64,000 bases of DNA from a virus. The DNA lies in the IMG/VR virus record IMGVR_UViG_2772190613_000004; one strand, written 5' to 3'. Shown piece by piece: positions 4,017 through 44,018 of the stretch. The translations under genes and the position numbers were made by a program. The notes under the pieces are model-generated. The model saw only the letters and a program-made list of their open reading frames with translations, searched no databases and had not been told where the DNA came from. The number at the start of each line of letters is the position of its first letter. The stretch's first letter is position 1.

Positions 4017-4351
4017 CAGCGGCCACCGCCGAACAAGCCGCCGAGGTTGGGAAGTCTGCCGACGAATTGCTGCAGCTGGGCCACCACGGTGGTGAGTGCG
4101 CCGAGATCGGGCAGGTGACCGGCGATTATCGGTGCGAGACGACGCGCCAGGCTGTCGAGGACCTGGTCATCGAGCTGGCCGGGGATGACGTTGGTGGCCT
4201 TGTCGACGAGGGACGGCAACACCTCGGCCACCTGCTCCCGCACGAACTTGGTTGCTGAGTCGATGTCGTCGCGGTTGGCGGGGTCCTTCAACCACGCCAC
4301 CGCGGCGTCGAAGATGGCCTGGCCAAGGATGGGCATCAGTTTGGCGAGCAC
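4016..4351 (-). CDS. amphipathic helical protein heading the lysin operon
   Basis: TGATG coupling to lysin A; start placed by the late-promoter motif. Confidence 0.75.
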   Translation of the reverse strand: MLAKLMPILGQAIFDAAVAWLKDPANRDDIDSATKFVREQVAEVLPSLVDKATNVIPGQLDDQVLDSLARRLAPIIAGHLPDLGALTTVVAQLQQFVGRLPNLGGLFGGGR

Positions 4352-4384
4352 GACCACGGACGGTAAAGCCGCAGGGTGCAAGCC

Positions 4385-5092
4385 CTATCCGGCCTCAATC
4401 CAGTCGATACCCGCCGAGAACCGCCGCGGCCCCAGCAGGTCCTTGGAACCATCGACCCGGGCGCCGACGCTCTTGTAGCCGGTGCCGCTGGCGGCCGACG
4501 CGCCGGTGTCGTTCCACTCCCCCGCGAACTGGCCGTTGCGGCGCAGCGTGTGCAGGTTCCCCACCCCGGATAGGCGGATGATGTCGCCGGCGGCGAACGC
4601 GCCGCAGTCCGCAGCCATGATGGTGTCGGTGCTGGCGACGCGGCGCACGATCGCCAACTTGCTGTTCAGCAGCTCGACCCCGACACCGTGAGTGAACGCC
4701 GCATCGGAGACGCGGGCGAACACCTGGGTGCGGTGCTTGGTGCCGGTGATCGAGTCACCCGAACCCTGTGTGCCGACACGGAATTCGACGTAGTAGTCCG
4801 TGCCGGACACCTGGGCGGCGTTGAACCGGATCCGGTCGGTCTTGAGCGCCGCCGAGATCAAACCGTCGGGGACGTCCAGGCGGAGCATGCCGTTGACGAT
4901 GTTCGCGACGTAGTCATTGGCTGGGCCGTAGTGCGTCCACGTGGCACCCAGGGCGCCGTCGGCGCGGTTGAAGTCGTCCCGCACACCAGATTTCGACCAG
5001 ACCAGCGTGCTGCCCTTGTAGAGCTGCTGCACCGGCGTCGAACCGATATAGAGCCCCTGGACCGGTGCGCTGCCGATATACAGGCCGGCCAT
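4385..5092 (-). CDS. minor tail protein, putative carbohydrate-binding
   Basis: GLYIGS repeats, DDFNRAD motif, beta-rich. Confidence 0.8.
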   Translation of the reverse strand: MAGLYIGSAPVQGLYIGSTPVQQLYKGSTLVWSKSGVRDDFNRADGALGATWTHYGPANDYVANIVNGMLRLDVPDGLISAALKTDRIRFNAAQVSGTDYYVEFRVGTQGSGDSITGTKHRTQVFARVSDAAFTHGVGVELLNSKLAIVRRVASTDTIMAADCGAFAAGDIIRLSGVGNLHTLRRNGQFAGEWNDTGASAASGTGYKSVGARVDGSKDLLGPRRFSAGIDWIEAG

Positions 5093-5502
5093 CAGATCAC
5101 CGCGTACATCACGTTCGGGTTCTTGCTGGGCAACGCCCCCCAGTCCGCTGCGGTGATCGGTACGACGTCGAGTGTGATGGCGTTGCCGTCCTTGTCGTGT
5201 GCTGTGACGACCCCGGTGCCGGCCTTGTCGGCGGTGACCGCGTCGTCGTCGAGCTTCGCGGTGGTGACGGCGCCGGGCGCGAGGTTGACGGCCTCCACAC
5301 CGTCGGTGGCGATCTTCTCGGTGGTGACAGCCCCGTCGGCGAGCTTGCCAGTGGTCACGGCTTTCTCGGCCAGCTTCGCTGTGGTGACAGCCCCGTTGGT
5401 CAGCCCGGACGGTGCGACCTCTTCGATCTCCTGCTGCATCTGCGGCGACAGCCGTTCGCCAACCGGCTTTTCCGTATCGAGGTAGGGAACGAGCTTCGCC
5501 AT
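5092..5502 (-). CDS. tail fibre-like protein with 10-aa AVTTAKLA repeats
   Basis: Repeated decapeptides; C-terminal [16 protein letters not shown]. Confidence 0.8.
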
Positions 5503-5530
5503 GCCCGCAGGTTATGGGCTCAGCGTGCAG

Positions 5531-6217
5531 CTACCGCATCCCCGACATCGCTCGGGTGAACGCATCGAACGATGCTTCCACCTCCCCAGGGGTGAAGCCC
5601 TCGGGCGGCTTGACCTGCGCGCGATAGTCCTTGCCGTTCAGGCGTTCCGCCCCCTCGGGTGCCGGTGCATACAGCCGGTCCATCAGGTCCTCGCGGGCAC
5701 GGCGGTCCCGATCCTTGTCTCCCGTGCTGGCCGTGCCCTCCAGGGCGAGGGTTTCGATCTCATCGATGACGGCGTGCATGTGCGGTAATTCGCGCATCGG
5801 GTCGGCGATCCCGTCCGACCGCATCCGCTGCCGAACGGTGCGCCAGTGCGTGCCGGCCATCACCGCCAGGATGATGACGGCGACATAGGGGCGGGCGGTT
5901 CCCCACGTCGCCAACCCGCGGGCCACGAGCGTGGTCGTGTCGCCGGGGAGTTCGTCGGCCATCATGGCGGACAGCAGGCGCTCATACTCCCCGTCATCGA
6001 GGTGGTCCCGGACGAATTGGGTCAGGTAGCGGTGCCGTTCCTCCGGGGTGATCTTCGGGTTGCCTGACATTGCCAGCGCGGCCGCCGATCTCGGCATCGG
6101 TCGCCGGGCGCGCACGACACCGACGTCCGGCACATCGAGGTCCAGCACCGGGCCCGTCAGCGGCGCCAGGGCGGCGTCGCCCAGCATGTCGTCGAAACCC
6201 TCGGGCGGATCAAACAT
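5531..6217 (-). CDS. putative tail assembly chaperone, GT-like form
   Basis: N-terminal half resembles 22340-22891; followed by a C-terminal extension. Confidence 0.6.
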   Translation of the reverse strand: MFDPPEGFDDMLGDAALAPLTGPVLDLDVPDVGVVRARRPMPRSAAALAMSGNPKITPEERHRYLTQFVRDHLDDGEYERLLSAMMADELPGDTTTLVARGLATWGTARPYVAVIILAVMAGTHWRTVRQRMRSDGIADPMRELPHMHAVIDEIETLALEGTASTGDKDRDRRAREDLMDRLYAPAPEGAERLNGKDYRAQVKPPEGFTPGEVEASFDAFTRAMSGMR

Positions 6218-6227
6218 CTGGGCTGGC

Positions 6228-7538
6228 TCAGATGACGGGGGTGCCGGGCACCAGCACCGACAGGGCGATCGCGCGGCCGGACCACTGGGGTTCCTTGGTC
6301 GGGGTGAACGACCGGTCCAGCGTGGGCCGCGGCGGACTGGCCAGCGCGGCGACCGCCATGGTGGAGCCGGTGGCGTCGACGTCGGACAGCGCGGTCATGC
6401 CGGCCGGGGGTGCCTGGTTGATCGGCGCCTGCAGCGGCGTGTGAGCGATGTGGGAGGCGCACAACAGCAGTTGGCCGCGGCTGTCGATGCTGGGGCACAC
6501 GTGGCCGCCGTCGCCGCGTTCCCAGAACCTCCGGGACAGGGTGGAGGCGAATCGCCACTCGGTGAAGTCCGTGGAGGCGTCGCGCAGCACCACGAGCGTG
6601 ACGATCTCCTCGGCCAGCACGCCGGTGGTGAAGTGGTAGGAAGCCGGTTCGGCTGCCGACGCGATGCGGCCGTACACCTTCATGTGGACGTCGCCGATGC
6701 CCATCAGTCCGTCATTGCGGACGTGCAGCTCGGTCCAACCGTCTTCGGATGGGGTGATGTCGGAGGCCAGGCCGATGTTGTTCGCCACGATCGCCAACAT
6801 GGCGTCGCCCGCCGCTGTTCCGGCCGGCACATCGACGTCGGTGGGGAATGTGTTGTTGGTGGAGTGCTCCACCCCCACGACCGTGGGGATTGGACGTGAT
6901 GGCAGCGGACCGCCTGCGACGCTGGGGATTCCGAACAGGTCGATACGGGTGTCGCCGGAGATGAACAGCGACTCGGTGTTCTGGTCGCCGCCGTCGATGG
7001 TGGTGTTCTCCCAGAAGTCGGAGACGAATCGGACGGTCACGCGCGCGAAGAACGTCTCCCCCGGCGCCACTATGGGCCACCCGGGGGTCTGTGGCATCAA
7101 CGGTGCGCTCTGGCTGTTTGCGCGTACCTCGTGCACACCGAAACCAGTGCCCAATGCGAGGGTGCCGCCTTTGCCGATGTCCATGCCGCACCCGAACCGC
7201 GAGACCTCCACCATGTCGAAGCTGCTCGGTGGTGTCGCGGTGGGGCGGATGTCGATGCCGTGCGAGGTGACGAGGTAGCCGCGGGATCGGGCCTGCAACG
7301 TCACCTGCGCGCCGGCCCGGGTCACGAGGCCGTAGACGTGTTGTGGCACTGGGCTGTTGTTCGTCCACTGAATGTCGACGGTGTGCACCAGGTCTGCTTT
7401 GTTGCCGCCACCGCTCGTGTCGTAGCTGCGGGATACCGATGTGGCTGTCCGGCTGGCCAGCTGGCGGTATTGCGTCCATGGCTGCGGTTCGATCGCTTCG
7501 TCGACGATCGCGAAGTGCTCACTGTTGGCGCCGCTCAT
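6228..7538 (-). CDS. minor tail protein (paralog domain + C-terminal beta domain)
   Basis: WTNNSPVPQHV motif shared with two upstream genes; coupled. Confidence 0.8.
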   Translation of the reverse strand: MSGANSEHFAIVDEAIEPQPWTQYRQLASRTATSVSRSYDTSGGGNKADLVHTVDIQWTNNSPVPQHVYGLVTRAGAQVTLQARSRGYLVTSHGIDIRPTATPPSSFDMVEVSRFGCGMDIGKGGTLALGTGFGVHEVRANSQSAPLMPQTPGWPIVAPGETFFARVTVRFVSDFWENTTIDGGDQNTESLFISGDTRIDLFGIPSVAGGPLPSRPIPTVVGVEHSTNNTFPTDVDVPAGTAAGDAMLAIVANNIGLASDITPSEDGWTELHVRNDGLMGIGDVHMKVYGRIASAAEPASYHFTTGVLAEEIVTLVVLRDASTDFTEWRFASTLSRRFWERGDGGHVCPSIDSRGQLLLCASHIAHTPLQAPINQAPPAGMTALSDVDATGSTMAVAALASPPRPTLDRSFTPTKEPQWSGRAIALSVLVPGTPVI

Positions 7539-8134
7539 GCTGACCCCACCGGGGTGGCGAATACCAGCAGGCGGGCCCAGCGGGCGTGCGCTTCCCACCG
7601 TGACTCGAACTCGCTGGCCGACGTCCACACGCCGGGAGTCTGGACCGCGGCGAGGTAGCGGAAGTGCAGCGAATGCTTCGCCGGCAGGACGCCGATCGGC
7701 ACCCACGCCTGCGACGCGTCACCGTCGATGAACAGGCGCCCGTATTTCAGGTCCTCGGCGCGGGTCTCGGGCCGGTCGACCTGGGCGCGGCCACCGAACG
7801 CGTCCTGAACGATGCTGGGGTAGTCGGCGGTGGGGCTGACACCCTGCGCGTGCGACCAGGCGTCGTGGATCACGACGGTTCCGGGGTTCTGCGCGACGAT
7901 GCTGCGCGGTGCTCGATTGACCTGCACGGCAACGACTTGCGGGTCACCGGTGTTGTTGTACCAGTCGATGTCGCCGCTGATCATCGTCACCGGGTCGGGG
8001 GCGCGGCTGATCGTGCCGTCCTTGGTGGATTCGAGGAACCGTTCGGCGACGATGCGGGGAAACCAATGCCGCGCCATGTCGAGCCCATCGACCGTGGCCA
8101 GCATCCCCTCCATGGTGCAGGGTTTGACGGTCAT
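7535..8134 (-). CDS. minor tail protein (paralog)
   Basis: WYNNTGDPQVV..NRAPR; ATGA overlaps. Confidence 0.8.
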   Translation of the reverse strand: MTVKPCTMEGMLATVDGLDMARHWFPRIVAERFLESTKDGTISRAPDPVTMISGDIDWYNNTGDPQVVAVQVNRAPRSIVAQNPGTVVIHDAWSHAQGVSPTADYPSIVQDAFGGRAQVDRPETRAEDLKYGRLFIDGDASQAWVPIGVLPAKHSLHFRYLAAVQTPGVWTSASEFESRWEAHARWARLLVFATPVGSA

Positions 8135-8235
8135 CGCCGGCCCCTCCAGTAGCGGCCCCACGCCACGCCCCAGGACGCGACGTAAACCGCCGTCCAGACC
8201 AAGATCCCGATCAGGATGCCCACGAAGAGGTTCAT
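8131..8235 (-). CDS. 34-aa membrane peptide
   Basis: MNLFVGILIGILVWTAVYVASWGVAWGRYWRGRR; ATGA overlaps at both ends. Confidence 0.7.
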   Translation of the reverse strand: MNLFVGILIGILVWTAVYVASWGVAWGRYWRGRR

Positions 8236-8873
8236 CCGGTCACCACATTTCCTTGCTGTCCGAACGCGATCAGTTGCAGCCGAGCCCAATTCGCTTTCGC
8301 CTCATGCTTCGGGCTGTTCTTGTTCGCGTTGTCCGAGAACGGCGGAGGCGTCCACACGTAGCAGCGATACCAGGCCTTGAACGACTGGCCGGGCCCGATC
8401 GGGTACGGCACCCACTCGTCGACCATGTTGGTGTCGGTCCACATCCACTGCTGCCCCGGCTCCGGCTCGGCGACACTGTTGGTGCCGAGGTCGATCGCAG
8501 AGCCGGTCTGCCCGTTGAAGATCCCCGACGTGATCGGCGGCCCGGGTTCGGCGTCTGTCGCGTAGGTCCAGCGGTCACGGAACTGGATCGCATTCGGGTT
8601 CGACGTCAGCCAGTAGCGTGGGCCGCGCACCACGCGGATCAACACCTGCTGCTCGAGCGGAGTGTCATTGCGCCACCCAGCTTTGATGTCGATCAGCAGC
8701 TTTCCCGGCAGCGCAGTGGTCGGGTACACCTTCCCGTCGCCACCCGAATTGCCACGCACATCAGCGACGAGACGCGGCACCGCCCACGGCTGCAAACGGA
8801 GCTGGCCGGCGTCATCGGTGGTGAGGTTCTCCCCGACGCAAACGTTCGGCTCGGTGTACTCCGTGATCGCCAC
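8232..8873 (-). CDS. minor tail protein (paralog)
   Basis: WRNDTPLEQQV..VRGPR; late-promoter motif upstream. Confidence 0.8.
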   Translation of the reverse strand: MAITEYTEPNVCVGENLTTDDAGQLRLQPWAVPRLVADVRGNSGGDGKVYPTTALPGKLLIDIKAGWRNDTPLEQQVLIRVVRGPRYWLTSNPNAIQFRDRWTYATDAEPGPPITSGIFNGQTGSAIDLGTNSVAEPEPGQQWMWTDTNMVDEWVPYPIGPGQSFKAWYRCYVWTPPPFSDNANKNSPKHEAKANWARLQLIAFGQQGNVVTG

Positions 8874-8899
8874 GAGCGCGAGGTTACGGAGCCCGGGTG

Positions 8900-9004
8900 C
8901 TAGCGCTCGTGCGGTGAGCGGCTGGTCATGATGGCCATCGTGACGGTCCAGCTACCAACCAGCCCACCGAGCATGAACGCGAGAATCAGCAGGTGCCAGG
9001 GCAC
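8900..9004 (-). CDS. 34-aa membrane peptide
   Basis: MPWHLLILAFMLGGLVGSWTVTMAIMTSRSPHER; TAGTG coupling. Confidence 0.65.
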   Translation of the reverse strand: MPWHLLILAFMLGGLVGSWTVTMAIMTSRSPHER

Positions 9005-9435
9005 TACACCCTGGTCCAAATCCTCGCTGGCGCGGTGGCGAGTTCAAAGTCCTTGGCGTACTTGTTGGTCAGGTTGGTCTCTTTGAGCGTCTTGAGCGCG
9101 GCCCGTGCGTCGGCCTCACCGCCGGGCAGGACGGTCAGCGCCGTCTGCCAGCTCGCGGGGTCGGCCAGCGCCTGGTCCACGATGTCCTCGCGCGCTGCCA
9201 CCGCGGCCTCGTAGGTCTTGAGGTCGGCGATGTACTGGTCCTGCAACGCCTGCTGCTCAGGGGTGAGCACCGGTGGGATGGGGTTGCCCGTCGCCGGGTC
9301 ATAGGTCGGCAGCGGCAGCTCGGGCCGGGCCGGCGGGCTCGGTGGCGCGGGTACGGTGCCGTCGTCCGGCAACGTCGCGACCTGCCAGATCACGGCCCAC
9401 TCGTAGTCGGTGCCCTGCGGCGTCGGGGTGCTCAT
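9004..9435 (-). CDS. proline-rich tail-module protein
   Basis: AGGAG RBS; lies in the tail operon. Confidence 0.75.
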   Translation of the reverse strand: MSTPTPQGTDYEWAVIWQVATLPDDGTVPAPPSPPARPELPLPTYDPATGNPIPPVLTPEQQALQDQYIADLKTYEAAVAAREDIVDQALADPASWQTALTVLPGGEADARAALKTLKETNLTNKYAKDFELATAPARIWTRV

Positions 9436-9444
9436 CGAGGTCTC

Positions 9445-9837
9445 CTAGTTGGCGGCGATCGGGCTGAACGACAACGTGTCAGTGGCGATGCGGATGATGT
9501 CGCCGTTCACGCCGCCCTTCGACACGCTGGCCGCGGCGGTCCACAGGCAGTTCCCTCCGGCCGGGCCAGCGGAATCCCAGAACGACACATAGGCAATCGT
9601 CTCGGTCGCGTTGAGGGTCCACTCGGGGGTCGTATTGGCCGAGATGCTGCCGGACGCCGCCGCGGCAAACGAGAGGGCAAGACGGGCGGTCTGAGCCGAG
9701 GCGCCGTTCGCTCCGGCCGCGCCGGGGTCGGTGAGATGTGCCTTGGCGTAGACCGTGGCGGGCGGGGTGTACGCGACGTTGCGGCACACATGGTCAAGCA
9801 GCTTGTTCGCGAGGTACGCGGTGATGCCAACGGTCAC
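9445..9837 (-). CDS. tail fibre-associated protein
   Basis: YLANKLLDH..YTPPATVY..DPG..WDS..GGNCLW pattern; start placed by the promoter motif. Confidence 0.8.
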   Translation of the reverse strand: MTVGITAYLANKLLDHVCRNVAYTPPATVYAKAHLTDPGAAGANGASAQTARLALSFAAAASGSISANTTPEWTLNATETIAYVSFWDSAGPAGGNCLWTAAASVSKGGVNGDIIRIATDTLSFSPIAAN

Positions 9838-9866
9838 GGCGGTGATGTTGTCAGGGCGGGGTGTAG

Positions 9867-11363
9867 CTACTGGCGGGCAAGGTAACTGGCCTGGCCTCGC
9901 GCGCCCGCTCCGCCAGATCCGAATGTGGTCTGCGCTCCCGCGCCTGCGCCGCCCGGCGCATTCCCCGTCCCGCCGTTGGAGTTCTGCTGAGCGCCGCCGA
10001 TCATCGTGAGACTGCCTTGAGTTCGGTTGCCCGGACTGAGCCCCGCGACTCTGCCTGCATCCGAGGTTGTCGACCCTGCACCGCCCGTCCCGGTCAGCGT
10101 CGCGGCACCCGTGCAAACCGAGGTGGTCGACGCTCCACTGCCGCCGTTGCCGGTGCCGCCGGACGCTCCACCAGTCCCGACGGTCCCGGTGATCGCTGTG
10201 ACGGAGTACGGCACGCCGCCGGGGCCGCGTGTGATGGTGTCGCTGGCGTAGCTGCCTGGGGTACCGCCCGCGCCCCAGACGCAGCAGAAGCCGAGACCTT
10301 TACCGGCGCCGCCGCCGCCGAGGACGATGCGGTCGATGATCTCGCTGTTGCGGGGGAACGTGTAGCTGTAGGCGCCGGTGGCTGTCTGGTCGAACTGGAT
10401 CGGCAGGCCGGTCGGCGGGAACGCGGCGGCCACACCAGCGGACAGGGCGACGGCTTGGGCGAAAGCCAGATCCAGGCGTTTGGCCAACTCTTGAGAACTT
10501 GACAGCGACAGCGCCCGAGACAGGCTCAGCGGTCCTATGCCGGTGAACGTCACACCGCCCGCCAGGCCGACGTCGCGCGACGCCGACAGCGGGCCGATCC
10601 GATCCAGATCCACCACCGCAGCGGTGAGGATCTGCCGCTGCAGATCAAGCACGCGCACCTTGTCCAGACCCACCGTGCGGCCAACGGAAAGCGACTGCGC
10701 CAGATCCACACCGGCGACCCGCAGCAACGTCAATGCCCGGTTCACCGTCACGGTCTGCGCCATGTCCAGCATGGCCAGCTTGGTCAGGCTCACCGAGGCA
10801 CTGGCCACCACGGTCCGCGCCAGGTCCAAGAACTTCAGTGCCATCAGGTCCACGACCCGCCCGGCCTGCACCGTCTGCGCGACGTCGGCCGTGCCGATCT
10901 TGGTCAGGTCGACCTGGCGCCCCGCCGTGATCGTGGTGAGCAGACCGAACGCGGTGAATTGGGCGAGCTCCACCGTGCTGGTCGTGACGATGGGGGCGTT
11001 CACGTCGATGGTCGAGATACGGGTCAGCGCCACCGACCGGGCCAGGGCGACCTGGTGGGCGACGTCGAGGCCACCGAGGGTCGACAGGCCAACCGTGCGG
11101 ATGACAGAGAGACTCTGCTGGGCGGCGATCATGCCGAGCTTCTGCAGGGCCACGCTGCGGTCGAGCGCGACGGCGCGCACCACTCCGAGGTTCTGGAGTT
11201 GGCCCAGCTCGACGGCGCTGACCATGTGCAGGGACAGTGCACCGTCGATGCCGAGCACGGCCCACCAGGACGGCGCGACGACCTGGCTACCGGAGTGGTC
11301 CGGTGCAGCGCCCCAGCCGTTGCGTAGCAACGAGGTGTGAGGGCGATCCGGGAACCAGGGCAT
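9867..11363 (-). CDS. minor tail fibre with periodic repeats and Gly-rich C-terminal domain
   Basis: Repeated LDLAQ/VDL units; GGGGAG, GNAPGGAGAG. Confidence 0.8.
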   Translation of the reverse strand: MPWFPDRPHTSLLRNGWGAAPDHSGSQVVAPSWWAVLGIDGALSLHMVSAVELGQLQNLGVVRAVALDRSVALQKLGMIAAQQSLSVIRTVGLSTLGGLDVAHQVALARSVALTRISTIDVNAPIVTTSTVELAQFTAFGLLTTITAGRQVDLTKIGTADVAQTVQAGRVVDLMALKFLDLARTVVASASVSLTKLAMLDMAQTVTVNRALTLLRVAGVDLAQSLSVGRTVGLDKVRVLDLQRQILTAAVVDLDRIGPLSASRDVGLAGGVTFTGIGPLSLSRALSLSSSQELAKRLDLAFAQAVALSAGVAAAFPPTGLPIQFDQTATGAYSYTFPRNSEIIDRIVLGGGGAGKGLGFCCVWGAGGTPGSYASDTITRGPGGVPYSVTAITGTVGTGGASGGTGNGGSGASTTSVCTGAATLTGTGGAGSTTSDAGRVAGLSPGNRTQGSLTMIGGAQQNSNGGTGNAPGGAGAGAQTTFGSGGAGARGQASYLARQ

Positions 11364-11448
11364 GGATGCTCATCTCACTGGCCCAGCGTGCACCGGCTGA
11401 CTGTCGCAGTCGTCAATACATCGAGCCGGTTGATGGCATCATGAGCGC

Positions 11449-11775
11449 GTGGGGAGACCGCCAATCGGATGTCCAATCGACGATTGCGACGGCGCACACC
11501 TGGCTGAGAGGGTGTGTCACTTCGAGGACGGCAAGGTTTACGCCCGCGGGCTGTGCAGTTGGCATTACCACCGGTTCCTCAAGGGCAGACCGTTGGAGCC
11601 TCCGAAACGCCACGAGGGACGCACCCGCGTCCTCACCGCGGATGACGTCGAACAGATCCGCCAATTGCGGGCGAAGCCGGGTTACCAACACCAGGAACTG
11701 GCCGAGATGTTCGGCGTAAGCGAGTCCGCGATCAGTCACATCTTCACCGGCCGAACATGGTCGCGAACGGACTAG
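11449..11775 (+). CDS. Zn-finger + HTH DNA-binding protein, antisense to the tail genes
   Basis: ARGLCSWHY; LTADDVEQIR..ELAEMFGVSESAISHIFTGRTW. Confidence 0.8.
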   Translation: MGRPPIGCPIDDCDGAHLAERVCHFEDGKVYARGLCSWHYHRFLKGRPLEPPKRHEGRTRVLTADDVEQIRQLRAKPGYQHQELAEMFGVSESAISHIFTGRTWSRTD

Positions 11776-15426: not shown

Positions 15427-15430
15427 GGCT

Positions 15431-32073: not shown

Positions 32074-32096
32074 GGCAGCCTTTCTGCAGCTATCGG

Positions 32097-36821: not shown

Positions 36822-36848
36822 GAGCGAGACGGTAGCCAAGCTGGGTGT

Positions 36849-37265
36849 TTACTCGTCGTTCTCGACGATCTCGATGTCCTCGTCCGCCGACAGCGGCGCC
36901 GCCAGCCCGACGAGGTGACTGGTGGCCAACGCAACTCCGAACGCCGCCCACCACGGCCACCCGACGAGCACCACCGGCACGATCGCAGTCGCCAGCGACA
37001 GCCAGAACCCCACGCACCACGGGCATCCGATGAAGTACGCCAGGGTGTTCCACCGCGCCATCGTCCGCAGATGCAGCTCCGCCGCGATGGGCTGCATGTT
37101 CACCTCCGCCTCTTCACCGGCCGACTTCGCGGTCTGGGCCCGGCGTGCGATACGGATCCGCAACGGGTCCAGCACGGTGTCGAAGTTGACCAGGCGAACG
37201 AGCCGCATCACCGCCAGCACGTAGACGATGAGAATCAGAATCGTCACACCGAGGTCGTGACTCAT
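36849..37265 (-). CDS. DUF1360-like membrane protein
   Basis: RLVRLVNFD, CPWCVGFW, TM helices. Confidence 0.8.
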   Translation of the reverse strand: MSHDLGVTILILIVYVLAVMRLVRLVNFDTVLDPLRIRIARRAQTAKSAGEEAEVNMQPIAAELHLRTMARWNTLAYFIGCPWCVGFWLSLATAIVPVVLVGWPWWAAFGVALATSHLVGLAAPLSADEDIEIVENDE

Positions 37266-37786
37266 ATGGTCACCGCTTCCTGCTTGCTGATGAGTTCCCG
37301 TTGGATCCGAACGTATTCGGGGACCTTGCGCGGCTTTGGCCGGACGCTCGCGATGTATTCGAGGATGTCCGTGGTCAACTTGAACCACTCGCCGCGCACC
37401 CGATGTTCAGCAAACCGTCGATGAAGTTCCCGCTCCAACTTCGGGCCGCCGGGCATCTCCAGCACAATGGTCAGTTCCGACGCATTCGCCACTTGAAGAT
37501 CAGCGAAACGAGCCTGGACCGAAGTGGCGTAACCAATCTTGACGTTCCCATGCTCATCGGAGATGAAATAAACCGACTGGGCCGGCTGCTCCATCCGCTC
37601 AAGATTGATGAACCCAGCCTCCACACATTTTCGGCAGTAGTCCTTGTTGCCACGCCGCACGACGTTCGCGCCCCGTACCCGATGGCCTTCCGCGCAGATT
37701 CCCGGACATCTCCCGCCCGTCTTGGCGTACAGCTTTTTCAGTTGTTCTTGTTCCGTGATATGCGGTGCTGTGAATCCGAGGCTCAT
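37262..37786 (-). CDS. Zn-ribbon + GIY-YIG (T5orf172-like) nuclease
   Basis: VYFI..VKIGY..R..LQ..ERELHRRF..RGEWF. Confidence 0.85.
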   Translation of the reverse strand: MSLGFTAPHITEQEQLKKLYAKTGGRCPGICAEGHRVRGANVVRRGNKDYCRKCVEAGFINLERMEQPAQSVYFISDEHGNVKIGYATSVQARFADLQVANASELTIVLEMPGGPKLERELHRRFAEHRVRGEWFKLTTDILEYIASVRPKPRKVPEYVRIQRELISKQEAVTI

Positions 37787-38367
37787 GACGCGGAAGCTAC
37801 GGCGGCAGCGTGCAAAACCGTCACACGATTGGTGTGATTGCCATTCTGGCCAGCGGTTTTTCGGCGCGCCCTGTACTGAGATGCACGCTCCCGGTTGCAC
37901 TCCCGGCAATAGTCGCGGCCCTGGTGACGATACAAGTTCCACTTAACCTTGGGATGCCCGCAGGTACGGAACGTCTCGATCCGCTCGCCAACCCTCAAGA
38001 CGTCCAGCAGCTGATCCACCTGGGCCCGCAGACGTTCCGCTTCCGTGCGTGATTCTCTGAGCTCCCGCCGTGTCAGCGCGTGATCTGATCGTTCAGTGCG
38101 CAGATCGTCGCCGAGCGCACGGGTTTCGGTCTGCGCGACGACGGCCATCTGGGTGATGTCCTCCGCGCGGATTGACCGCACCAGCCGCAACGAACAGCTC
38201 ATCCGGTCAGCGATGTCTTGCGCCGTCACCCCGGCGAGCGTGAGGCCGGCGACGATCCAGGCGCGGTCAGCGTCGGACAGTTCGGTCATCTTCCGCGAGG
38301 CTTTCGGCGTCGACAGCACCGCGGCCACCATGTGCTCGTCGGGCTGCCAGCGTTGCGGCGCCGTCAA
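37783..38367 (-). CDS. HTH + coiled coil + Zn-ribbon DNA-binding protein
   Basis: GVTAQDIADRMSCSLRLVRSI; CGH..YCREC. Confidence 0.8.
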   Translation of the reverse strand: MTAPQRWQPDEHMVAAVLSTPKASRKMTELSDADRAWIVAGLTLAGVTAQDIADRMSCSLRLVRSIRAEDITQMAVVAQTETRALGDDLRTERSDHALTRRELRESRTEAERLRAQVDQLLDVLRVGERIETFRTCGHPKVKWNLYRHQGRDYCRECNRERASQYRARRKTAGQNGNHTNRVTVLHAAAVASAS

Positions 38368-38520
38368 TGCCGATACCCGTTCGTCCCCACGGGGCCAAGG
38401 TAAGCCCGCTGCCAGCAACTACCCAGGCACGCACGCGAATGACACCTAAACCGTTACGCTGCAAGTGATCCTAGACACGGGAATGGTGGAGCCTCGGTAA
38501 CTATCGCTAGTGGACTGCCG

Positions 38521-38736
38521 CTACCTCTCTGGTCGGAAATTGAATTTGGCGAGTTCCTCCCGAAGATCGACGCCAAGGTCAGCTCCGAGGCGGTCAAATA
38601 CGGCGAGCATGGAAGCCGACAACGACATGACGAGATCATGCATTCTGGCCGGGTCGTCCTGCTCGGAGCAGTACCACTCCACCCGCGAGCGGAGATCTTG
38701 TGCAACTGCCGTGAGGAATTCGATGTCCTTGTTCAT
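38521..38736 (-). CDS. hypothetical protein
   Basis: TACGTT-N7-ATG leaderless start; helical. Confidence 0.65.
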   Translation of the reverse strand: MNKDIEFLTAVAQDLRSRVEWYCSEQDDPARMHDLVMSLSASMLAVFDRLGADLGVDLREELAKFNFRPER

Positions 38737-38821
38737 GAGGCCGAACGTAGACGGTTCGCGGTCACACCGCGGCAGTTTCGCCTTGTCCCTTCGGCGCGAG
38801 GACGCGGTACGAACACGTCCC

Positions 38822-40363
38822 TCAACTGATCTTGCGCGACATCCAATCGCCCAGGTCCACCACCGAGCCACCGCCACCGAACGCGCCCGGCATCGCCTGG
38901 CCAGTGCCACTGCCGAATTGTTCCCCGCCCGGTGCCGCGATGTCCCACTCCAGCCCAGCCGCGTGCACGCACTCATCATGGCCAATCACCAGCGCCGCCA
39001 GGTTGTCCGGCTGATGCTGGCCCGCCTGCCACGCCACCGCTTTGGTCTCGAAATCAGGGAAATGCCCCGCCAGACGGCAGGTTCCGGTTTCCAGCGCCTG
39101 CAGCAATGCCGCCGAACGGGCCACCGCATCCCCCACCCGCGCGCGGCCTTTCGGCGGCCACGACGTCACCCGAATCTCACGGCCCAACGTGCCTGCCTCG
39201 ACCGCCCGCCCGATCGCCGCCCGAACCACCCGCACATACGTCTCCCGCGCGGAAAACCCCTCCACCGTGATCTGACTCGCCCCCACCTTCACCGCGAGGT
39301 CCACCGCAGCCACGGCCCACGCGTCCGACGTCATCGGCGCCGAAATGTCCGCGATCATCGCCACCACACCGCCAGCCGTCATCGACGTCGCCACCAAACC
39401 GCACGAGTCGCCCTCACCCGAATCGCTCGGGTCCACCGCCACCACCGTGAACACCGGGGAGCTCGGCGCAACCGGCAACCGCCAGCGTTCCAACCACGCC
39501 GCCTTCACCAAGCTGCCCGCCGGGGTCTTCGGCTCACCGCAATACAGCGCGAACCACACCCGCTCCCCCACCATGCGGCGCGTCGCCGCGAAATCCGCTG
39601 CCGTGTAGCCCAGCGCCGAGATCATCGCAACGCCCGGAGGCCGACCCAACGCGTCAGGAATCTTCGCGTCGCTCACGGCGGGAATGTTGGTGCGCCGCCA
39701 CCGCTTCGGATCCTGCTTCAACAACGCGCCAGCCAAATCCTCCTCATGCCACCGCGTCATCACCAACAGGATCGAGCCGCCCGGATGCACACGCGTCGAC
39801 AACGTCGACTGAAACTCGTTCAGCACACGCTTGCGGTGCGCCTTCGAATCCGCCTCCGCCGCATCCTTAACCGGGTCATCGATGATCATCAGATCCGCAC
39901 CGAAACCCGTCACACCCGAGTTGATGCCCGTCGCCAGGACGCCACCCTCGTGGCCCTCGACGCGCCACTGCCCTACCGCCGTCTTGTCCCGCGCCAACCG
40001 GAAGCCGAGAAAGTCGCCGTGCTCGTTGATGATCTTGCGGACCTCACGAGAATGCACCTGCGCCAACTCATCCGAGTAGGACACGATCACGATTTCGAGG
40101 TCAGGGTTTTCCATCAGCGCCCAGACGGACGTCCAGATGGCCAGCATGCGGGACTTGCCGGTCCGCGGCGGAGTCGACACCGCGTCACGCTCGTCAGGCT
40201 GTGTGACCGATCGGACCGCGAGGTCGGACAGCAGCCGAATCGTCGGCGTCACACGGAACTTCGGGTCCAGCAGACGCGCCAGTTCGGCGGGTGACTTCGG
40301 CCGGCGTTGAGCACGCGTCGCCCGCACGTGCCGGATGGCCGTGAGCACCTGGACTGGATCCAC
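38822..40363 (-). CDS. terminase large subunit
   Basis: PPRTGKS Walker A, IIDDP, TRWH, VAVDP nuclease motif. Confidence 0.95.
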   Translation of the reverse strand: MDPVQVLTAIRHVRATRAQRRPKSPAELARLLDPKFRVTPTIRLLSDLAVRSVTQPDERDAVSTPPRTGKSRMLAIWTSVWALMENPDLEIVIVSYSDELAQVHSREVRKIINEHGDFLGFRLARDKTAVGQWRVEGHEGGVLATGINSGVTGFGADLMIIDDPVKDAAEADSKAHRKRVLNEFQSTLSTRVHPGGSILLVMTRWHEEDLAGALLKQDPKRWRRTNIPAVSDAKIPDALGRPPGVAMISALGYTAADFAATRRMVGERVWFALYCGEPKTPAGSLVKAAWLERWRLPVAPSSPVFTVVAVDPSDSGEGDSCGLVATSMTAGGVVAMIADISAPMTSDAWAVAAVDLAVKVGASQITVEGFSARETYVRVVRAAIGRAVEAGTLGREIRVTSWPPKGRARVGDAVARSAALLQALETGTCRLAGHFPDFETKAVAWQAGQHQPDNLAALVIGHDECVHAAGLEWDIAAPGGEQFGSGTGQAMPGAFGGGGSVVDLGDWMSRKIS

Positions 40364-40394
40364 GGCGACCAGAGTGGCAGGGCGCGGTGAGCGC

Positions 40395-40988
40395 TCAGCC
40401 GACGATCCTTACCTTCCGAACACCCTCGACAACGTCTGCGATCACCTGATCCACCGAAAGCCCACTCCGTTCGGCGGAATGCTCAGCGAGCGTGCGCGCC
40501 ACATTTGCCAGGCCCGTGATGATGTCCGGAGCCACCTTCGCAAACGCTGCATCCGTCGCACGGGGCCCACCTGGGACCAACTTCGCGACCTCCATAGTCG
40601 CTGCGGCGGCGCTCTCCTCCGGATCGCTGCTACTGACCGCGGCCCGCACGATATCGACAGCTTTCAACGCATTCACCTGCTGCTCGAGAGTCCATTCCGG
40701 CGCTGCATCCTCCCTGAGCATCTTCAACAGCCGGTCACGCGCCACGGTCGACGCAGGCAATCCCCGCCGCTCCGCTGCCCGCTCGACAGCTTCGAACTCG
40801 TCGGGGTTCAGTCGGACCTGCAGCACCTTGCTGCGCGCCCGGTTCGGCCGGCTCACGGTCACATGCGGGGGCAGCGGCGCCCCGTCGTCCTCGTCGTCGT
40901 AGGCGGCAGCCTCTGCGGCCCGGGCCTCTTCGTCCATCAGGTCGCGGAGCTCTTCGTTGCTCATCTTGTGCTGGTCCATCGTGATCAC
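40395..40988 (-). CDS. RHH (CopG-like) antitoxin with C-terminal extension
   Basis: Acidic N-terminus, SKVLQVRLNPDEFEAVERAA..STVAR. Confidence 0.75.
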   Translation of the reverse strand: MITMDQHKMSNEELRDLMDEEARAAEAAAYDDEDDGAPLPPHVTVSRPNRARSKVLQVRLNPDEFEAVERAAERRGLPASTVARDRLLKMLREDAAPEWTLEQQVNALKAVDIVRAAVSSSDPEESAAAATMEVAKLVPGGPRATDAAFAKVAPDIITGLANVARTLAEHSAERSGLSVDQVIADVVEGVRKVRIVG

Positions 40989-41263
40989 TCCTGTCCGAAG
41001 TAGTAGCGGCGGTCTTTACGGTTGGCGCGGAACGCGGTGGTGCCCTGCTGGACACCGTCGTTGTCGAAGTAGCTCAGAACGCTGAGCAGGTCGCCGTAGC
41101 TGGCGGAGTAGCCGATGGTGCGGATGCCGAGGCCGGACTTGCTGTTGTAGTCGGGGTTGATGGTGAGCGCGTCCTCGTGGGCGAACGCTTCGTCGGCCTG
41201 GGCGGTGGTGACACCGTGGCGGGCCAGATGTTCGTCGCGGTCCGTGTCCCAGTGCAGCGCCAT
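40985..41263 (-). CDS. BrnT-like RNase toxin
   Basis: W..HLARHGV..E..RTIGYS..TAFRA; sits upstream of the RHH gene. Confidence 0.75.
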   Translation of the reverse strand: MALHWDTDRDEHLARHGVTTAQADEAFAHEDALTINPDYNSKSGLGIRTIGYSASYGDLLSVLSYFDNDGVQQGTTAFRANRKDRRYYFGQE

Positions 41264-41298
41264 ACCAAGAGTGTATTACAGATGTAATACAGATGCAA
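41264..41298 (-). promoter_or_regulatory. SigA-type leaderless promoter with palindromic operator
   Basis: TTGCAT-N17-TACACT-N6-ATG; TGTATTACA-N2-TGTAATACA at 41272-41291. Confidence 0.85.
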
Positions 41299-41301
41299 GG
41301 G

Positions 41302-41472
41302 TTAGGACGCGCTGCCTGCGGTCTCCGCGATGAACGCCTGCCGAGCTTCCTCGAACGAGCAGTACGTGCCATGCCGGCCCGCATAAATCCGATCCGGCGG
41401 GAACACATCCCACCGGCACCCAACCGTGCGTGCGATCACCCACCTACCGCCGTCACCCCACACTCCGGCCAT
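41302..41472 (-). CDS. hypothetical protein
   Basis: TGATG coupling. Confidence 0.55.
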   Translation of the reverse strand: MAGVWGDGGRWVIARTVGCRWDVFPPDRIYAGRHGTYCSFEEARQAFIAETAGSAS

Positions 41473-41792
41473 CACCCGTCGAGCCGCCATTCATCGAGCA
41501 CCCGCGGATTGCCGCAGTGGTCACACACCGCCACCACGCGCCACCGATTCCACGACTCCGCACCCTCACTGGTGTTCCGGATCTCCGACCACACCAACGT
41601 CTGCGCGGCCCGTCGCCACTCATGGTCCAGGCCCTCGACGCACGGCGGATCCATGAACACCCCGACGGCACGCTGCGCCAGCTCCAGGACGGCCTCGACG
41701 TCGTCCGCGTCCGCGTCGCTGTCCATCACCAGCTCGTCCATCAGCGCCTCGTGAACCTTGGCAGTCAGCTCGGCACGCACGTCGTCACTCAT
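41472..41792 (-). CDS. hypothetical Zn-binding protein
   Basis: C..H.W..CDHCG. Confidence 0.65.
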   Translation of the reverse strand: MSDDVRAELTAKVHEALMDELVMDSDADADDVEAVLELAQRAVGVFMDPPCVEGLDHEWRRAAQTLVWSEIRNTSEGAESWNRWRVVAVCDHCGNPRVLDEWRLDG

Positions 41793-42033
41793 CGCCACCT
41801 ACCTCATCGTCGGGGATCTCCGGCAGCTCACCGAACCGGTCCGCATCGGCCGCGAGCGCTAGGTACATCGTCGCCAGCGAAGCCGCCAAGATCGCCTCCG
41901 CCGGATTATCGTCAGCAGCCTTCTGCGCGGCCCGCGCTTCCTCACGGGCATACCTCCGCCACCGCACAATCCGCTCAGGAATCGAGAAGTCCACGATCGG
42001 GCGGTCAGCCTCACCCGAACTGTCGCCCATCAC
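41785..42033 (-). CDS. hypothetical protein
   Basis: GTGA overlap with the resolvase stop. Confidence 0.65.
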   Translation of the reverse strand: MMGDSSGEADRPIVDFSIPERIVRWRRYAREEARAAQKAADDNPAEAILAASLATMYLALAADADRFGELPEIPDDEVGGDE

Positions 42034-42599
42034 TCGCTCCCCTCGGCCAATGTCCGGTAGAGCGTCGCACGCGACACCCCGAGCTGCGCCGCGATATCCG
42101 GCATCGGCTGGCCCGCAGACCGCAGCTGCTCCGCCATCTCGACCTGCTGCGCCGTCAACGCTTTCGGCCGGCCGATCGGCAGGCCACGTGCCCGCCGGGC
42201 CGACTTCGACGCGGCCCGGCGTTCCCGCTGCAACTCCAGCTCCAGCTCGGCGAGTGAGGCCAGGACGCCGGCGATCATGCGGCCCGTCGCGTTGGAGGTG
42301 TCGATGCCCTCACGGAGCGATCGCAGCACGATGCCCCGTTCCCCGAGGTCTCGGATGGTCATCATCACCTCGGCAGCGTTGCGGCCCAGGCGGTCGATGC
42401 CGACGACCACGATGGTGTCGCCCTCGCGGGCGTAGTCGAGCAGGGCAGCGAGGCCGGGTCGCTGCTCCCGTGTGCTGGTGCCGGTCAGCTTGTCGTCGTA
42501 GACCTTGGTGACCCCGACGGCCTCCAGTGCGTCGTGCTGCTGGTCGAGGGACTGGTGTCCGGTGGAGACTCGGGCGTAGCCGAGCAGCGCGCCGTCCAT
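42030..42599 (-). CDS. small serine recombinase (resolvase/invertase family)
   Basis: GYARVST, RPGL, DRLGR, GRPK, C-terminal HTH GVSRATLYR. Confidence 0.95.
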   Translation of the reverse strand: MDGALLGYARVSTGHQSLDQQHDALEAVGVTKVYDDKLTGTSTREQRPGLAALLDYAREGDTIVVVGIDRLGRNAAEVMMTIRDLGERGIVLRSLREGIDTSNATGRMIAGVLASLAELELELQRERRAASKSARRARGLPIGRPKALTAQQVEMAEQLRSAGQPMPDIAAQLGVSRATLYRTLAEGSE

Positions 42600-42832
42600 C
42601 AGGCCGCCCCGAGCCATTCCGGGGTGGCGTACGGGTCGGGGTGGCCGCTGATCTTCCAGGCCGCGACGCTGGCGGCGTCGGTGCGGGCCATCTCCGCGAT
42701 CGCCACCCATACCGGGTGGTGGGCGGTGAGCTTGGCGGCGTACTCGCATTTGAAGTCGTGATAGTCGAGTCCGGCGGCGACGATGGTCTGGATGACCTCG
42801 TCGCTGGTGATCGGGGCGGTGGTCTCGGGCAT
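42599..42832 (-). CDS. hypothetical protein co-transcribed with the resolvase
   Basis: TAGGCT-N6-ATG; TGATG coupling. Confidence 0.7.
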   Translation of the reverse strand: MPETTAPITSDEVIQTIVAAGLDYHDFKCEYAAKLTAHHPVWVAIAEMARTDAASVAAWKISGHPDPYATPEWLGAA

Positions 42833-42842
42833 GACCCAAGCC

Positions 42843-42963
42843 TATCTCAAAAGTTTTCGAGACACCATATCGATACGCGACAACTTTTGAGAAAATTGAC
42901 CAGCGGATACACCGCACCCAGCGCCACCCTAGACGGTCGTCCCGAAACTAAAGTTCTGAGACA
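42843..42963. promoter_or_regulatory. putative res site (three subsites)
   Basis: AT-rich imperfect palindromes TCTCAAAAGTTTTCGAGA, AACTTTTGAGA, GTCCCGAAAC-TAAA-GTTCTGAGAC. Confidence 0.75.
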
Positions 42964-43421
42964 TCCTCAGGCGGCCCATCACGCACCTCGACCGGCTCGC
43001 CGGTGTCGTTGACCATCGACTCACCCGGCGGCAGCTCGCCGCCCGCATCGAACGGCTGCACCGGCCAGGCCAGTACCTCGTCGCACGCCTCCGCCGTCCA
43101 CTCCCCCGCGTCGGCGTCCGGCTCAGCCTCGACGCCTTCGGCCGCGCGGGTCACCGCCAGCCACTCCGCCAGCTCACCGGCCGGGATGCCACCACCGACG
43201 GCGAGCACCTGGCGCGCCACGTCCACATGCAGATCCCACAGCGGATCGTCGGGGCCCTCGACACGACCGAACAGCGCCCGAGCCTCAGCGGCCGCAGCGG
43301 CGTCGAGCGCGGCCGGGTCGAGCCGGCCCGTCGCGATGTCCTCGGCCAGCGACATCGCCGCATCCACGCCGGCCTTTTTCGCGGCCTTCGTCGCGGCCTT
43401 GAGCTGCTCCACGGTCGTCAT
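42948..43421 (-). CDS. hypothetical protein coupled to TerS
   Basis: ATGA overlap. Confidence 0.75.
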   Translation of the reverse strand: MTTVEQLKAATKAAKKAGVDAAMSLAEDIATGRLDPAALDAAAAAEARALFGRVEGPDDPLWDLHVDVARQVLAVGGGIPAGELAEWLAVTRAAEGVEAEPDADAGEWTAEACDEVLAWPVQPFDAGGELPPGESMVNDTGEPVEVRDGPPEDVSEL

Positions 43422-43888
43422 CGCTCCAGCTCCTCAGGTAGCGGCACGATCTCGGCGTCGATCGCGGCCTGCAGCTTCGCCCGGGTGTCGGTGATCATCT
43501 CCACCACCGTCTGCGTCACGTTCAGATCCACCACCTGCGGCACCGCGATGTGCAGGCCTTCGAGCTTCGCGCGCTTGTCGACGCCGTCGAGCACCACCTT
43601 GCCCAGCTCGGCCGCGTCACGGAACTTGCCCGCCTCGATCGCGTCGACCATGCAGTCGTGAAGCCGGGCCGTCGTGTCCGCCAGGAGATCCCCTCGGGCG
43701 CGCCGCATGGTGTCGATGTCGGCCGGCGGGTTCTTCTCCAGGTAGGACTTCACGGCCTTGTTGGCTGACTGCCGCGATTTGAACCCGAGCTCGTCGGCGA
43801 TCTCCTGCCACGTCCTCCCACGCACGTGGAGCCGCCAGGCCTCAGCGGCGCGGGCTGTGCTGCTTTTGCGGTCCATGACTGGGGGCAT
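43418..43888 (-). CDS. terminase small subunit (HTH)
   Basis: GRTWQEIADELGF, RAKLEGL; position. Confidence 0.75.
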   Translation of the reverse strand: MPPVMDRKSSTARAAEAWRLHVRGRTWQEIADELGFKSRQSANKAVKSYLEKNPPADIDTMRRARGDLLADTTARLHDCMVDAIEAGKFRDAAELGKVVLDGVDKRAKLEGLHIAVPQVVDLNVTQTVVEMITDTRAKLQAAIDAEIVPLPEELER

Positions 43889-44018
43889 GTGGTGGATTTT
43901 CTGGGGTGGGGGTGCTGGGTGTGTGGACTGTGGTCCGGTTGCGGTTGGGCCGTTTTGGGGTGTCGGGCTGAATCACAAGCGTGTGCTTTTGGGGCCGGAA
44001 TGCGATTCTGCGGGACTT

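Follow-up and report, generated by a model that had tools for sequence, protein, structure and literature searches.

The late region of the prophage

The stretch of DNA analyzed here, the 64,000 nucleotides (nt) of IMG/VR virus record IMGVR_UViG_2772190613_000004 (hereafter the window), is a nearly complete mycobacterial prophage of ~66% G+C in which a composite element, a short GCAC-containing box followed at fixed distance by a −10-like hexamer, precedes late genes at 13 sites. The minus strand carries the virion and lysis genes, from ~44000 down to ~1200; a tyrosine integrase gene lies at 62726..64000, and a WhiB gene at 46512..46916 (Pfam Whib, E 1.7e-16). Scans with PHROG and Pfam profiles confirmed the large terminase, portal, major capsid, major tail, tail chaperone, and minor tail proteins and a GH25 lysin A. 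Among deposited records it is closest to the M. abscessus prophages prophi88-1 and prophiT49-1 (T49-1 below) and to M. smegmatis phage Dori. The host genome is 8.08 Mb in size. A scan of genome contigs with the portal protein returned just two close relatives.

A box at fixed distance from a −10-like hexamer

The element reads t-GCAC(C/G)(C/G)nG, 6 nt, (T/C)AnnnT; all 13 sites are on the late-gene (minus) strand and sit in intergenic gaps of only 25–37 nt. The hexamer is TAnnnT at 8 of the 13 sites and NAnnnT at 12, and conservation of the box is limited to ~6 positions. A preliminary description of this DNA had listed twelve copies; each reads on the minus strand exactly as given there, and the count stands for those twelve but not as a total, because a 13th site, at 37813, had been missed; overall, the pattern is stronger than that description made it. 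As that description had also stated, 10 of the 12 are followed by ATG or GTG 6–8 nt past the second hexamer, the capsid and major-tail sites having leaders with AGGAG(G) instead, and the box is absent from the leaderless-type TAnnnT-N6-7-ATG sites at 599, 41263 (where a TTGCAT hexamer lies 17 nt upstream of TACACT), 42832, and 51515; the site at 42917 is likewise box-less.

The signal resides in the combination of box and hexamer and not in either loose part. Over the whole window, the loosest form of the box in International Union of Pure and Applied Chemistry (IUPAC) code is not enriched when taken alone (33 matches vs 26.2 ± 5.2), and neither is GCACCC alone (40 minus-strand vs 34 plus-strand occurrences). 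The box followed by N6 and TAnnnT, in contrast, occurs 8 times on the sense strand of 2001..44000 vs 0.53 ± 0.73 times (maximum 3) in 200 dinucleotide shuffles; with the hexamer relaxed to NAnnnT and ATG or GTG required after N6-8, the count is 10 vs 0.97 ± 0.99 (maximum 6) in the shuffles, with 1 antisense match. When box-hexamer spacings from 0 to 14 nt were tried, all 8 matches fell at 6 nt and none at the 14 others. At 6 nt the early region contains no match, and neither does the antisense strand. A position weight matrix (PWM) built from the sites gives, at 12 bits or more, 13 matches on the minus strand of the window and 0 on the plus strand, a count that contains the training sites by construction. 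In leave-one-out scoring the weakest sites are 36848, 40390, 43915, and 11391; the first three are kept in relatives, and 11391 is without such support.

From its geometry, the box would lie at about −27 to −19. No −35 element is conserved: 16–18 bp upstream of the −10, where a TTGACA-like hexamer would be expected, information content is at most 0.4 bit per column over 33 sites, and a consensus scan called 0 of the 13 sites as a sigma-70 −35/−10 pair. The capsid and major-tail genes are each followed by a strong hairpin, and another precedes the capsid site; these hairpins fit separate transcription units, although the consensus scan found terminator-like sites no more often than chance. The octamer GCCTCGGA (window positions 22872, 27655, and 37775, minus strand) follows three of the sites at no more than 20 nt from the predicted start, and its window-wide count is 5 vs 4.5 expected.

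The 8.08-Mb host genome holds 23 matches to the strict composite, 6 of them in the ~42-kb late region, against 39 for a reversed control pattern, and 30 other genomes of the genus hold 4–17 strict matches each, not above the reversed-pattern controls in 29 of the 30. Since neither the host nor its genus shows enrichment, the host evidently does not use this arrangement for its own genes. In another genome of the genus (G022:C1:506150-522628), three strict matches lie on one strand within 16.5 kb, one of them almost the same as the site that precedes the adaptor gene in Dori; this segment is probably a further prophage of the lineage. Sigma70_r2 has 0 matches in the window, all 32 matches in the genome lying elsewhere.

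Conservation in related phages

The element recurs at orthologous positions in the M. abscessus prophages, in phages Dori, Taptic, and Nigel, and in the Gordonia phages Evaa and Sour. Sites with the 6-nt spacing number 12 in Dori (plus a CAnnnT site at 16769), 10 in prophi88-1, 6 in Taptic, 5 each in Evaa and Sour, 4 in Nigel, and 2 in Yoshand, and these genomes contain only 0–2 matches at other spacings. The distant Gordonia phage Fireball, whose portal protein is ~30% identical, has 0 sites at 6-nt spacing. PWM matches of 12 bits or more, sense/antisense, are 7/1 in prophi88-1, 8/0 in T49-1, and 9/0 in Dori. Across 20 portal-anchored loci, many of them near-identical to one another and one (L027) being Dori itself, there are 80 sense and 2 antisense matches; three distant loci of similar G+C have none.

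The genes preceded by sites across the relatives are those for the portal (in all nine phages), capsid, major tail, tape measure, DUF1360, DUF7172, tail-tip, and lysin A proteins. At the orthologous portal sites the box is constant as (A/T)CACCC(A/T)G and the hexamer as TA(C/A)CGT, and the spacer (CTTGGC, CACAGT, TCCGGT) and discriminator vary; the same pattern, with box and hexamer kept and spacer and discriminator free, holds for the portal, capsid, and tail orthologues. Hexamers that deviate from TAnnnT are kept too: CACTCT at the terminase gene (loci L009 and L010), CAC..T at the chaperone gene (Dori, prophi88-1), and (G/C)AAAAT at the phrog_645 gene (Dori, prophi88-1). In an alignment (A2) of the major-tail upstream regions of 8 phages, box and hexamer are common to 7; the seven bases past the hexamer vary freely, and conservation restarts with AGCCTCGGA exactly at the predicted +1.

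Start codons and leaders

At 11 genes of the window, ATG or GTG lies 6–8 nt past the hexamer, and none of these 11 leaderless-type starts has a Shine-Dalgarno-like stretch of four or more bases of AAGGAGGTG at −20..−3. Both leadered starts, those of the capsid and major-tail genes, the two genes in highest demand, have AGGAG(G), and here the elements are ~60–90 nt upstream of the start codons. Seven deposited annotations, whose authors placed starts without knowledge of the motif, allow a comparison: 24 of 53 sites are exactly 26–28 nt before a deposited start codon and 15 precede leaders of 35–81 nt; at most of the remaining 14 the deposited start is 7–18 nt past the box start, that is, a longer reading frame was chosen. 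CAnnnT sites were admitted to this count only if exact, which adds one site.

The preliminary description had held that the motif corrects several start codons. This idea is supported by agreement of motif-based starts with the 24 deposited start codons in other phages and by the PHROG profiles, which align from residue 1 at the portal, chaperone, and DUF7172 proteins. The deposited records of prophi88-1 and T49-1 differ in their portal, chaperone, and adaptor starts, examples of start codons that the motif corrects or supports. In Dori (L003 8393..8430), the deposited major capsid start at 8393 is upstream of a motif site at 8402; if that site is a promoter, the true capsid start must be further downstream, as in the window and T49-1.

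The sites along the late region

All sites are described in the order of transcription on the minus strand, each as box, spacer, and hexamer. Site 1, at 43896..43915, reads GCACCCCC-ACCCCA-GAAAAT and is followed after 7 nt by the ATG at 43888 of gene 43418..43888 (phrog_645; a TerS-like protein with a helix-turn-helix [HTH] and long helices). Its leave-one-out score is 6.1, and it is kept before the homologues in Dori (GCACCCAC CAAGGA CAAAAT) and prophi88-1 (GCACCCCC AACAAA GAAAAT). Just upstream of this site the minus strand is C- and A-rich and nearly G-free, and 44001..46000 displays a strong strand bias (GC skew +0.205, AT skew −0.458 on the plus strand). Site 2 (40371..40390, TCACCGCG-CCCTGC-CACTCT) lies 7 nt before the GTG at 40363 of the large terminase gene, 38822..40363; it scores 11.3 bits with the PWM and 1.8 when left out, and in L009 and L010 the terminase gene is preceded by a counterpart, GCACCGGG GCGTGA CACTCT. 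In the window, 40395..41263, which adjoins the terminase gene on its upstream side, contains two small genes, one with a weak BrnT-toxin match (E 3.8e-4, below the Pfam cut-off) and one for a 197-aa protein with a weak NikA-like ribbon-helix-helix match; the pair, preceded by the box-less leaderless-type promoter at 41263 mentioned above, may be a toxin-antitoxin system expressed from the prophage.

Site 3, the new one (37794..37813, GCACGCTG-CCGCCG-TAGCTT), is 7 nt before the ATG at 37786 of a T5orf172/MUG113 gene, 37262..37786, which overlaps both the upstream gene and the downstream DUF1360 gene by ATGA. The position is occupied in Dori, prophi88-1, L009, and L010, there before the DUF1360 gene; in Dori and prophi88-1 the putative promoter at this position would drive the DUF1360 gene directly, with no T5orf172/MUG113 gene between, and the latter looks like a mobile nuclease-type gene inserted just behind a late promoter. 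Site 4 (36829..36848, ACACCCAG-CTTGGC-TACCGT, 7 nt) precedes the GTG at 36821 of the portal gene, 34908..36821, and has orthologues in prophi88-1, T49-1, Dori, Evaa, Taptic, Sour, Nigel, and Yoshand.

The two leadered sites come next. Site 5 (32009..32028, GCACCGTG-CCCTCT-TACTGT), with a hairpin and UUUCG tail directly upstream, is followed by a ~85-nt leader that starts with CAGAGAGTT and carries AGGAG before the GTG at 31916 of the major capsid gene, 29862..31916; orthologues with a leader starting CAGAGAGT or CAGATAGTC are found in Dori, T49-1, Evaa, Nigel, and Sour. Site 6 (27671..27690, GCACCCAC-TGCTCT-TACTGT) is followed by a ~55-nt leader from AGCCTCGGA, with AGGAGG, and the ATG at 27609 of the major tail gene, 26542..27609. 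Between the major tail and head-to-tail adaptor genes lies a 492-aa gene, 24974..26452, with a pectate-lyase-like N-terminal match (PF12708, E 2e-10); the adaptor ATG is one base past its TGA (TGACATG), and in Dori, prophi88-1, and T49-1 a motif site precedes the adaptor gene where the window has this gene.

Site 7 (22899..22918, GCACCGGG-GATTAG-CACCAT) is 7 nt before the ATG at 22891 of the tail assembly chaperone gene, 22340..22891. Dori has GCACGGTG GGATTG CACGCT here, 7 nt before the deposited ATG at 16796, and prophi88-1 has GCACCCCT GCTCGG CACGCT. In Nigel (L031 18590..18680), Yoshand (L004 19095..19175), and Sour (L030 21630..21710), what stands before the chaperone gene is TGGTAnnnT, a −10 of the extended form, with no box-type site, and the promoter type therefore differs at this orthologous position; the leader that follows has a CTCGGGAGG-type ribosome site in Nigel and Yoshand and GAAGGG in Sour. 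Site 8 (22321..22340, GCACCCTG-TCTCGC-TAGCTT) is followed after 6 nt by the GTG at 22314 of the tape measure gene, 16921..22314, and the deposited tape-measure starts of Dori, prophi88-1, T49-1, and Taptic are exactly 26 nt past the box start. A PWM match of 15.5 bits at 14571..14590 on the minus strand (GCACCGTG-ACACGC-CAATCT) is inside a minor tail gene, 14377..15426, with no start codon at the right distance; the corresponding tail gene of Dori and prophi88-1 has no match of 12 bits or more. We dropped it from the set as probably a chance hit.

Site 9 (11372..11391, GCACGCTG-GGCCAG-TGAGAT), the weakest, is 8 nt before the ATG at 11363 of a minor tail protein gene, 9867..11363; its leave-one-out score is 6.6, and an orthologous site was not found in the relatives. 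Within the adjoining region 11400..14000, G+C at 12001..14000 is 0.61, lower than elsewhere. Site 10 (9845..9864, ACACCCCG-CCCTGA-CAACAT, 7 nt) precedes the GTG at 9837 of the gene for a Gp80-like protein, 9445..9837; in the Dori orthologue, gp30, the site reads TCACCCAC GGTCGA TAGTAT, and the deposited start is 27 nt past the box start. Site 11 (8881..8900, GCACCCGG-GCTCCG-TAACCT, 7 nt; GTG 8873) serves the DUF7172 protein gene, 8232..8873, and site 12 (5509..5528, GCACGCTG-AGCCCA-TAACCT, 6 nt; ATG 5502) the gene for a tail-tip-like protein, 5092..5502; both have orthologues with exact deposited starts in Dori (30851 and 34091, respectively), prophi88-1 (35705 and 38951), and T49-1 (35916 and 39162). 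Site 13 (4360..4379, GCACCCTG-CGGCTT-TACCGT) is 8 nt before the GTG at 4351 of a small gene, 4016..4351, that is followed by the lysin A gene, 2478..4016 (GH25). In Dori (35466), Evaa (35066), and Sour (38762), the site is exactly 27 nt before the deposited lysin A start.

Candidate readers of the box

The preliminary description had proposed three activators that might act through the box, and each has lost ground. WhiB (Pfam Whib) is encoded by the window, Dori, and prophi88-1; in Evaa and Yoshand, both covered over their whole records, no match to the family was found, though Evaa has motif sites. The supposed HTH protein at 37783 (37783..38418) is a phrog_928 protein with a C-terminal HNH match, and Dori and prophi88-1 each have a homologue between their terminase and portal genes, a setting in which a role in packaging is likely. 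The HTH gene at 11449..11775 is on the opposite strand, and no homologue was found in four relatives; its PHROG matches are to HNH-endonuclease-associated families, and it probably came to lie among the tail genes by a mobile insertion. The appeal to a GACAC motif in the spacer of WhiA/WhiB promoters also fails: the accessible text of PMC10243135 places these activators upstream of −35, and GACAC occurs in 0 of the 13 boxes. In M. tuberculosis the WhiA motif is GACACGCC, bound with variable spacing and on either strand (PMC10243135 and PMC13473873, as far as their accessible parts go). WhiA/WhiB promoters do resemble the present ones in being actinobacterial and in having a short, asymmetric, CAC-containing motif, and the sepX target is leaderless (accessible parts of the same two sources); unlike in those promoters, the motif here is tGCACss and is confined to one strand and to an invariant location in the spacer region, downstream of where a −35 would be.

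Four protein families were considered as readers and set aside. HTH proteins of phrog_955 are shared by Evaa, Yoshand, Nigel, Sour, and Taptic and missing from both Dori and prophi88-1; phrog_597 was found only in Evaa, Yoshand, Sour, and Nigel; and phrog_27872 was not found in Evaa, Yoshand, Taptic, or Sour, with only a weak match, inside the tape-measure gene, in Nigel. The phrog_645 protein is present in all nine motif phages, yet also in motif-less Fireball, where it is gene 1, near the terminase gene. Its model in the window (43418..43888; predicted local distance difference test [pLDDT] score 76) has an N-terminal three-helix (HTH) unit and a long helical hairpin, a shape that presumably resembles those of small terminases. 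A fold search against the PDB returned only ferritin-like helical bundles with E above 0.08, and when PDB sequences were searched with a profile, no match fell below E 0.06; both searches were uninformative. The earlier label of TerS for this gene is a possible one but is unproven, and the protein may be either a small terminase or a regulator.

Comparison with known systems

The architecture has partial counterparts elsewhere. Middle promoters of phage T4 combine a MotA box, centered near −30 and ~12 bp from the −10, with a −10 element, and AsiA remodels region 4 of sigma. Like them, and in architecture only, the present sites would keep the host polymerase and the −10, would have a phage-specific box, read through a phage function, instead of a −35, and are dispersed in many copies; unlike the T4 box near −30, the box here is at about −27 to −19. 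Late promoters of phage Mu depend on the C/Mor activator, whose box is a dyad further upstream that overlaps the −35 region. They, too, are several dispersed late promoters that share an activator box replacing a good −35, some being probably leaderless, but the present box is asymmetric and inside the spacer region; a Mor/C-type gene was not identified, although no search aimed at one was made. Resemblance to the −24/−12 element of sigma-54 (TGGCAC-N5-TTGC, with GG and GC doublets 10 bp apart) is limited to GCAC: the box has no GG, TAnnnT takes the place of the second element, and the two parts are a different distance apart. To our knowledge, rpoN is absent from Actinobacteria.

Stoperators of cluster A phages are asymmetric repressor sites of 13–14 bp with no fixed relation to a −10. 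As with the present element (13 sense vs 0 antisense sites), many of these asymmetric sites lie along the direction of transcription in short intergenic gaps of virion genes; the element, however, has a shorter core, is locked at 6 nt from a −10-like hexamer, and is present in Evaa, which has no annotated repressor. (Stoperators are a section topic in the accessible part of PMC9262239.) The start-associated sequence of cluster K phages, with a GGAG-like core 3–8 bp before starts, was rejected as a match, since the present sites have no Shine-Dalgarno-like core and the two leadered ones are much farther from their starts.

In Thermus phage P23-45, as described in the accessible text of PMC4124052, which also mentions AsiA, gp39 shifts sigma region 4 such that −35/−10 promoters are lost and the late promoter is −35 independent; a single extended −10 late promoter serves 39 genes, with antitermination. 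Late genes under a −35-independent promoter class are the common feature, and 13 promoters with a box, rather than one with an extended −10, the difference. In their downstream half the sites resemble the leaderless promoters of the main mycobacterial sigma factor. According to the accessible part of PMC3898074, 73% of primary start sites in M. tuberculosis have TANNNT 7–12 bp upstream, a −35 consensus is lacking, and leaderless transcripts are abundant. Such promoters share with the present sites a TAnnnT-type hexamer, here 6–8 nt before an ATG or GTG that would be +1, and the lack of a Shine-Dalgarno sequence and a conserved −35. The host promoters in that part of the source differ in having no conserved upstream box, whereas here an 8-nt box is fixed at 6 nt in a composite that is not enriched in host genomes. 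Late promoters that have been characterized are few in number, according to the accessible part of a 2022 review by Hatfull; a preprint on B1 phages gives generic SigA-like predictions only, and our full-text literature searches found no description of the motif. The element class thus appears to be undescribed, within the known kind of phage late promoters that have a specific box in place of the −35.

Interpretation and alternatives

We posit that the element defines a lineage-specific class of late promoters that give leaderless mRNAs, with a box near −24 replacing the −35 and read by a candidate factor. On the sequence evidence we lean toward this reading as a whole; of its parts, that the elements are promoters is highly probable, and that the box is a positive element requiring a phage function is about an even call. 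Host RNA polymerase with the main sigma factor would read the (T/C)AnnnT hexamer as the −10, and transcription would start 6–8 nt past it. As geometry and conservation suggest, the first transcribed base at 11 genes would be the A or G of the start codon, yielding a leaderless mRNA, and at the capsid and major-tail genes it would be the first base of the conserved leader with its Shine-Dalgarno site. The box t-GCAC(C/G)(C/G)nG would take the place of the −35, and its reader would be a component of which the uninfected host makes no use at its own genes, either a phage-encoded or a phage-modified factor docking on the polymerase. If the sites are late promoters of this class, the ~40-kb virion and lysis region would consequently be split into many short units rather than form one long operon. 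The preliminary description had envisaged many small activator-dependent units: the many internal, mostly leaderless late promoters are supported by sequence comparison; dependence on an activator is plausible, and each named candidate is weakened.

Several observations weigh against this reading. Five of the 13 second hexamers are not TAnnnT (GAAAAT, CACTCT, CACCAT, TGAGAT, CAACAT); four sites score low in leave-one-out; Yoshand (cluster B1) keeps the hexamer-to-start geometry with a box that is degenerate at several sites; and no phage protein family was found in all motif-bearing phages yet absent from the Fireball control. In addition, a bare TANNNT often suffices for mycobacterial polymerase (PMC3898074, accessible part), so the box is perhaps not needed for initiation. 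It may be dispensable for this step, or negative, or read by the host enzyme itself, and the last two possibilities lead to the first two alternatives below.

The box could be read by host RNA polymerase or a general host factor, with no phage function involved; it would then strengthen promoters that have no −35, and late timing would come from elsewhere, such as gene dosage or control of read-through. That the motif spans two host genera, Mycobacterium and Gordonia, would be natural under this explanation, as would the failure to find a universal phage-encoded candidate and the lack of a sigma-70 region 2 match in the window. We nevertheless regard it as unlikely: a host-read box should be at home in host genomes, where the composite is below its control in the host itself and not above the reversed control in nearly all other genomes of the genus, and thirteen constitutive promoters, one of them before the lysis genes, would be hard to square with stable lysogeny.

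Alternatively, the hexamers could be the host-type −10 elements of leaderless promoters, and the box an operator at which a phage repressor silences them in the lysogen, much as at stoperators. The sites are indeed asymmetric, all along transcription, and in gaps of 25–37 nt. A bare TANNNT can suffice in mycobacteria (accessible part of PMC3898074), and lysis genes must be off in a lysogen. Site numbers also follow lifestyle genes, with 6–13 where an integrase, repressor, or Cro-like gene is annotated (the window, Dori, prophi88-1, T49-1, Taptic) and 2–5 where none is annotated in the parts of the records covered (Evaa, Sour, Nigel, Yoshand). Yet a single exact box-hexamer distance in every genome is expected of a promoter part and not required of an operator, and ~6 conserved positions are few next to the 13–14 of stoperators. 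Evaa and Sour, moreover, keep the box before their portal, capsid, tail, and lysin A genes, although the whole Evaa record has no annotated repressor or integrase and neither do 45 of the 61.7 kb of Sour. On balance, an operator seems improbable.

An RNA-level signal, a translation-initiation or processing element in one long late transcript akin to the start-associated sequences of cluster K, would account for an element directly before start codons that have no Shine-Dalgarno sequence at 11 genes, but we consider it very improbable. At the capsid and tail genes the element is far from the start (the predicted leaders in relatives being 35–81 nt), and a normal Shine-Dalgarno sequence is beside the codon; in sense, the box would correspond to the 3′ end of 16S rRNA itself and not to its complement. 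The second half of the element, furthermore, fits the −10 consensus and the distance of mycobacterial leaderless starts (PMC3898074, accessible part). Finally, chance or base composition, aided by a flexible pattern and a free choice of start codons, could draw on the unenriched loosest pattern (33 vs 26) and the commonness of GCACCC alone, but is contradicted by the shuffle, strand, and spacing controls, by conservation of orthologous sites in nine phages, and by the 24 sites that coincide exactly with start codons annotated by others, and its probability is negligible.

Implications

Returning to late promoters in which the box replaces the −35, a bolder version may be put forward, one that we offer tentatively and think less likely to be true than false. 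The lineage (cluster B, Dori, Taptic, the M. abscessus prophages, and the Gordonia phages Evaa and Sour) could carry an unrecognized polymerase-specificity switch, in which a phage factor, or DNA modification by phage methyltransferases, genes for which are carried by genomes of the lineage, retargets the main holoenzyme from −35/−10 promoters to a box near −24 plus a −10. Such a switch, if real, would parallel T4 AsiA/MotA on the actinobacterial side, in a new geometry and with leaderless output.

The element provides a concrete, testable consensus for a large group of Mycobacterium and Gordonia phages, with 13 start sites predicted in the prophage and similar sets in Dori, Taptic, and others. 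If a phage factor reads the box, mycobacterial RNA polymerase would gain a new handle in that factor, and promoters tightly dependent on the phage would become available.

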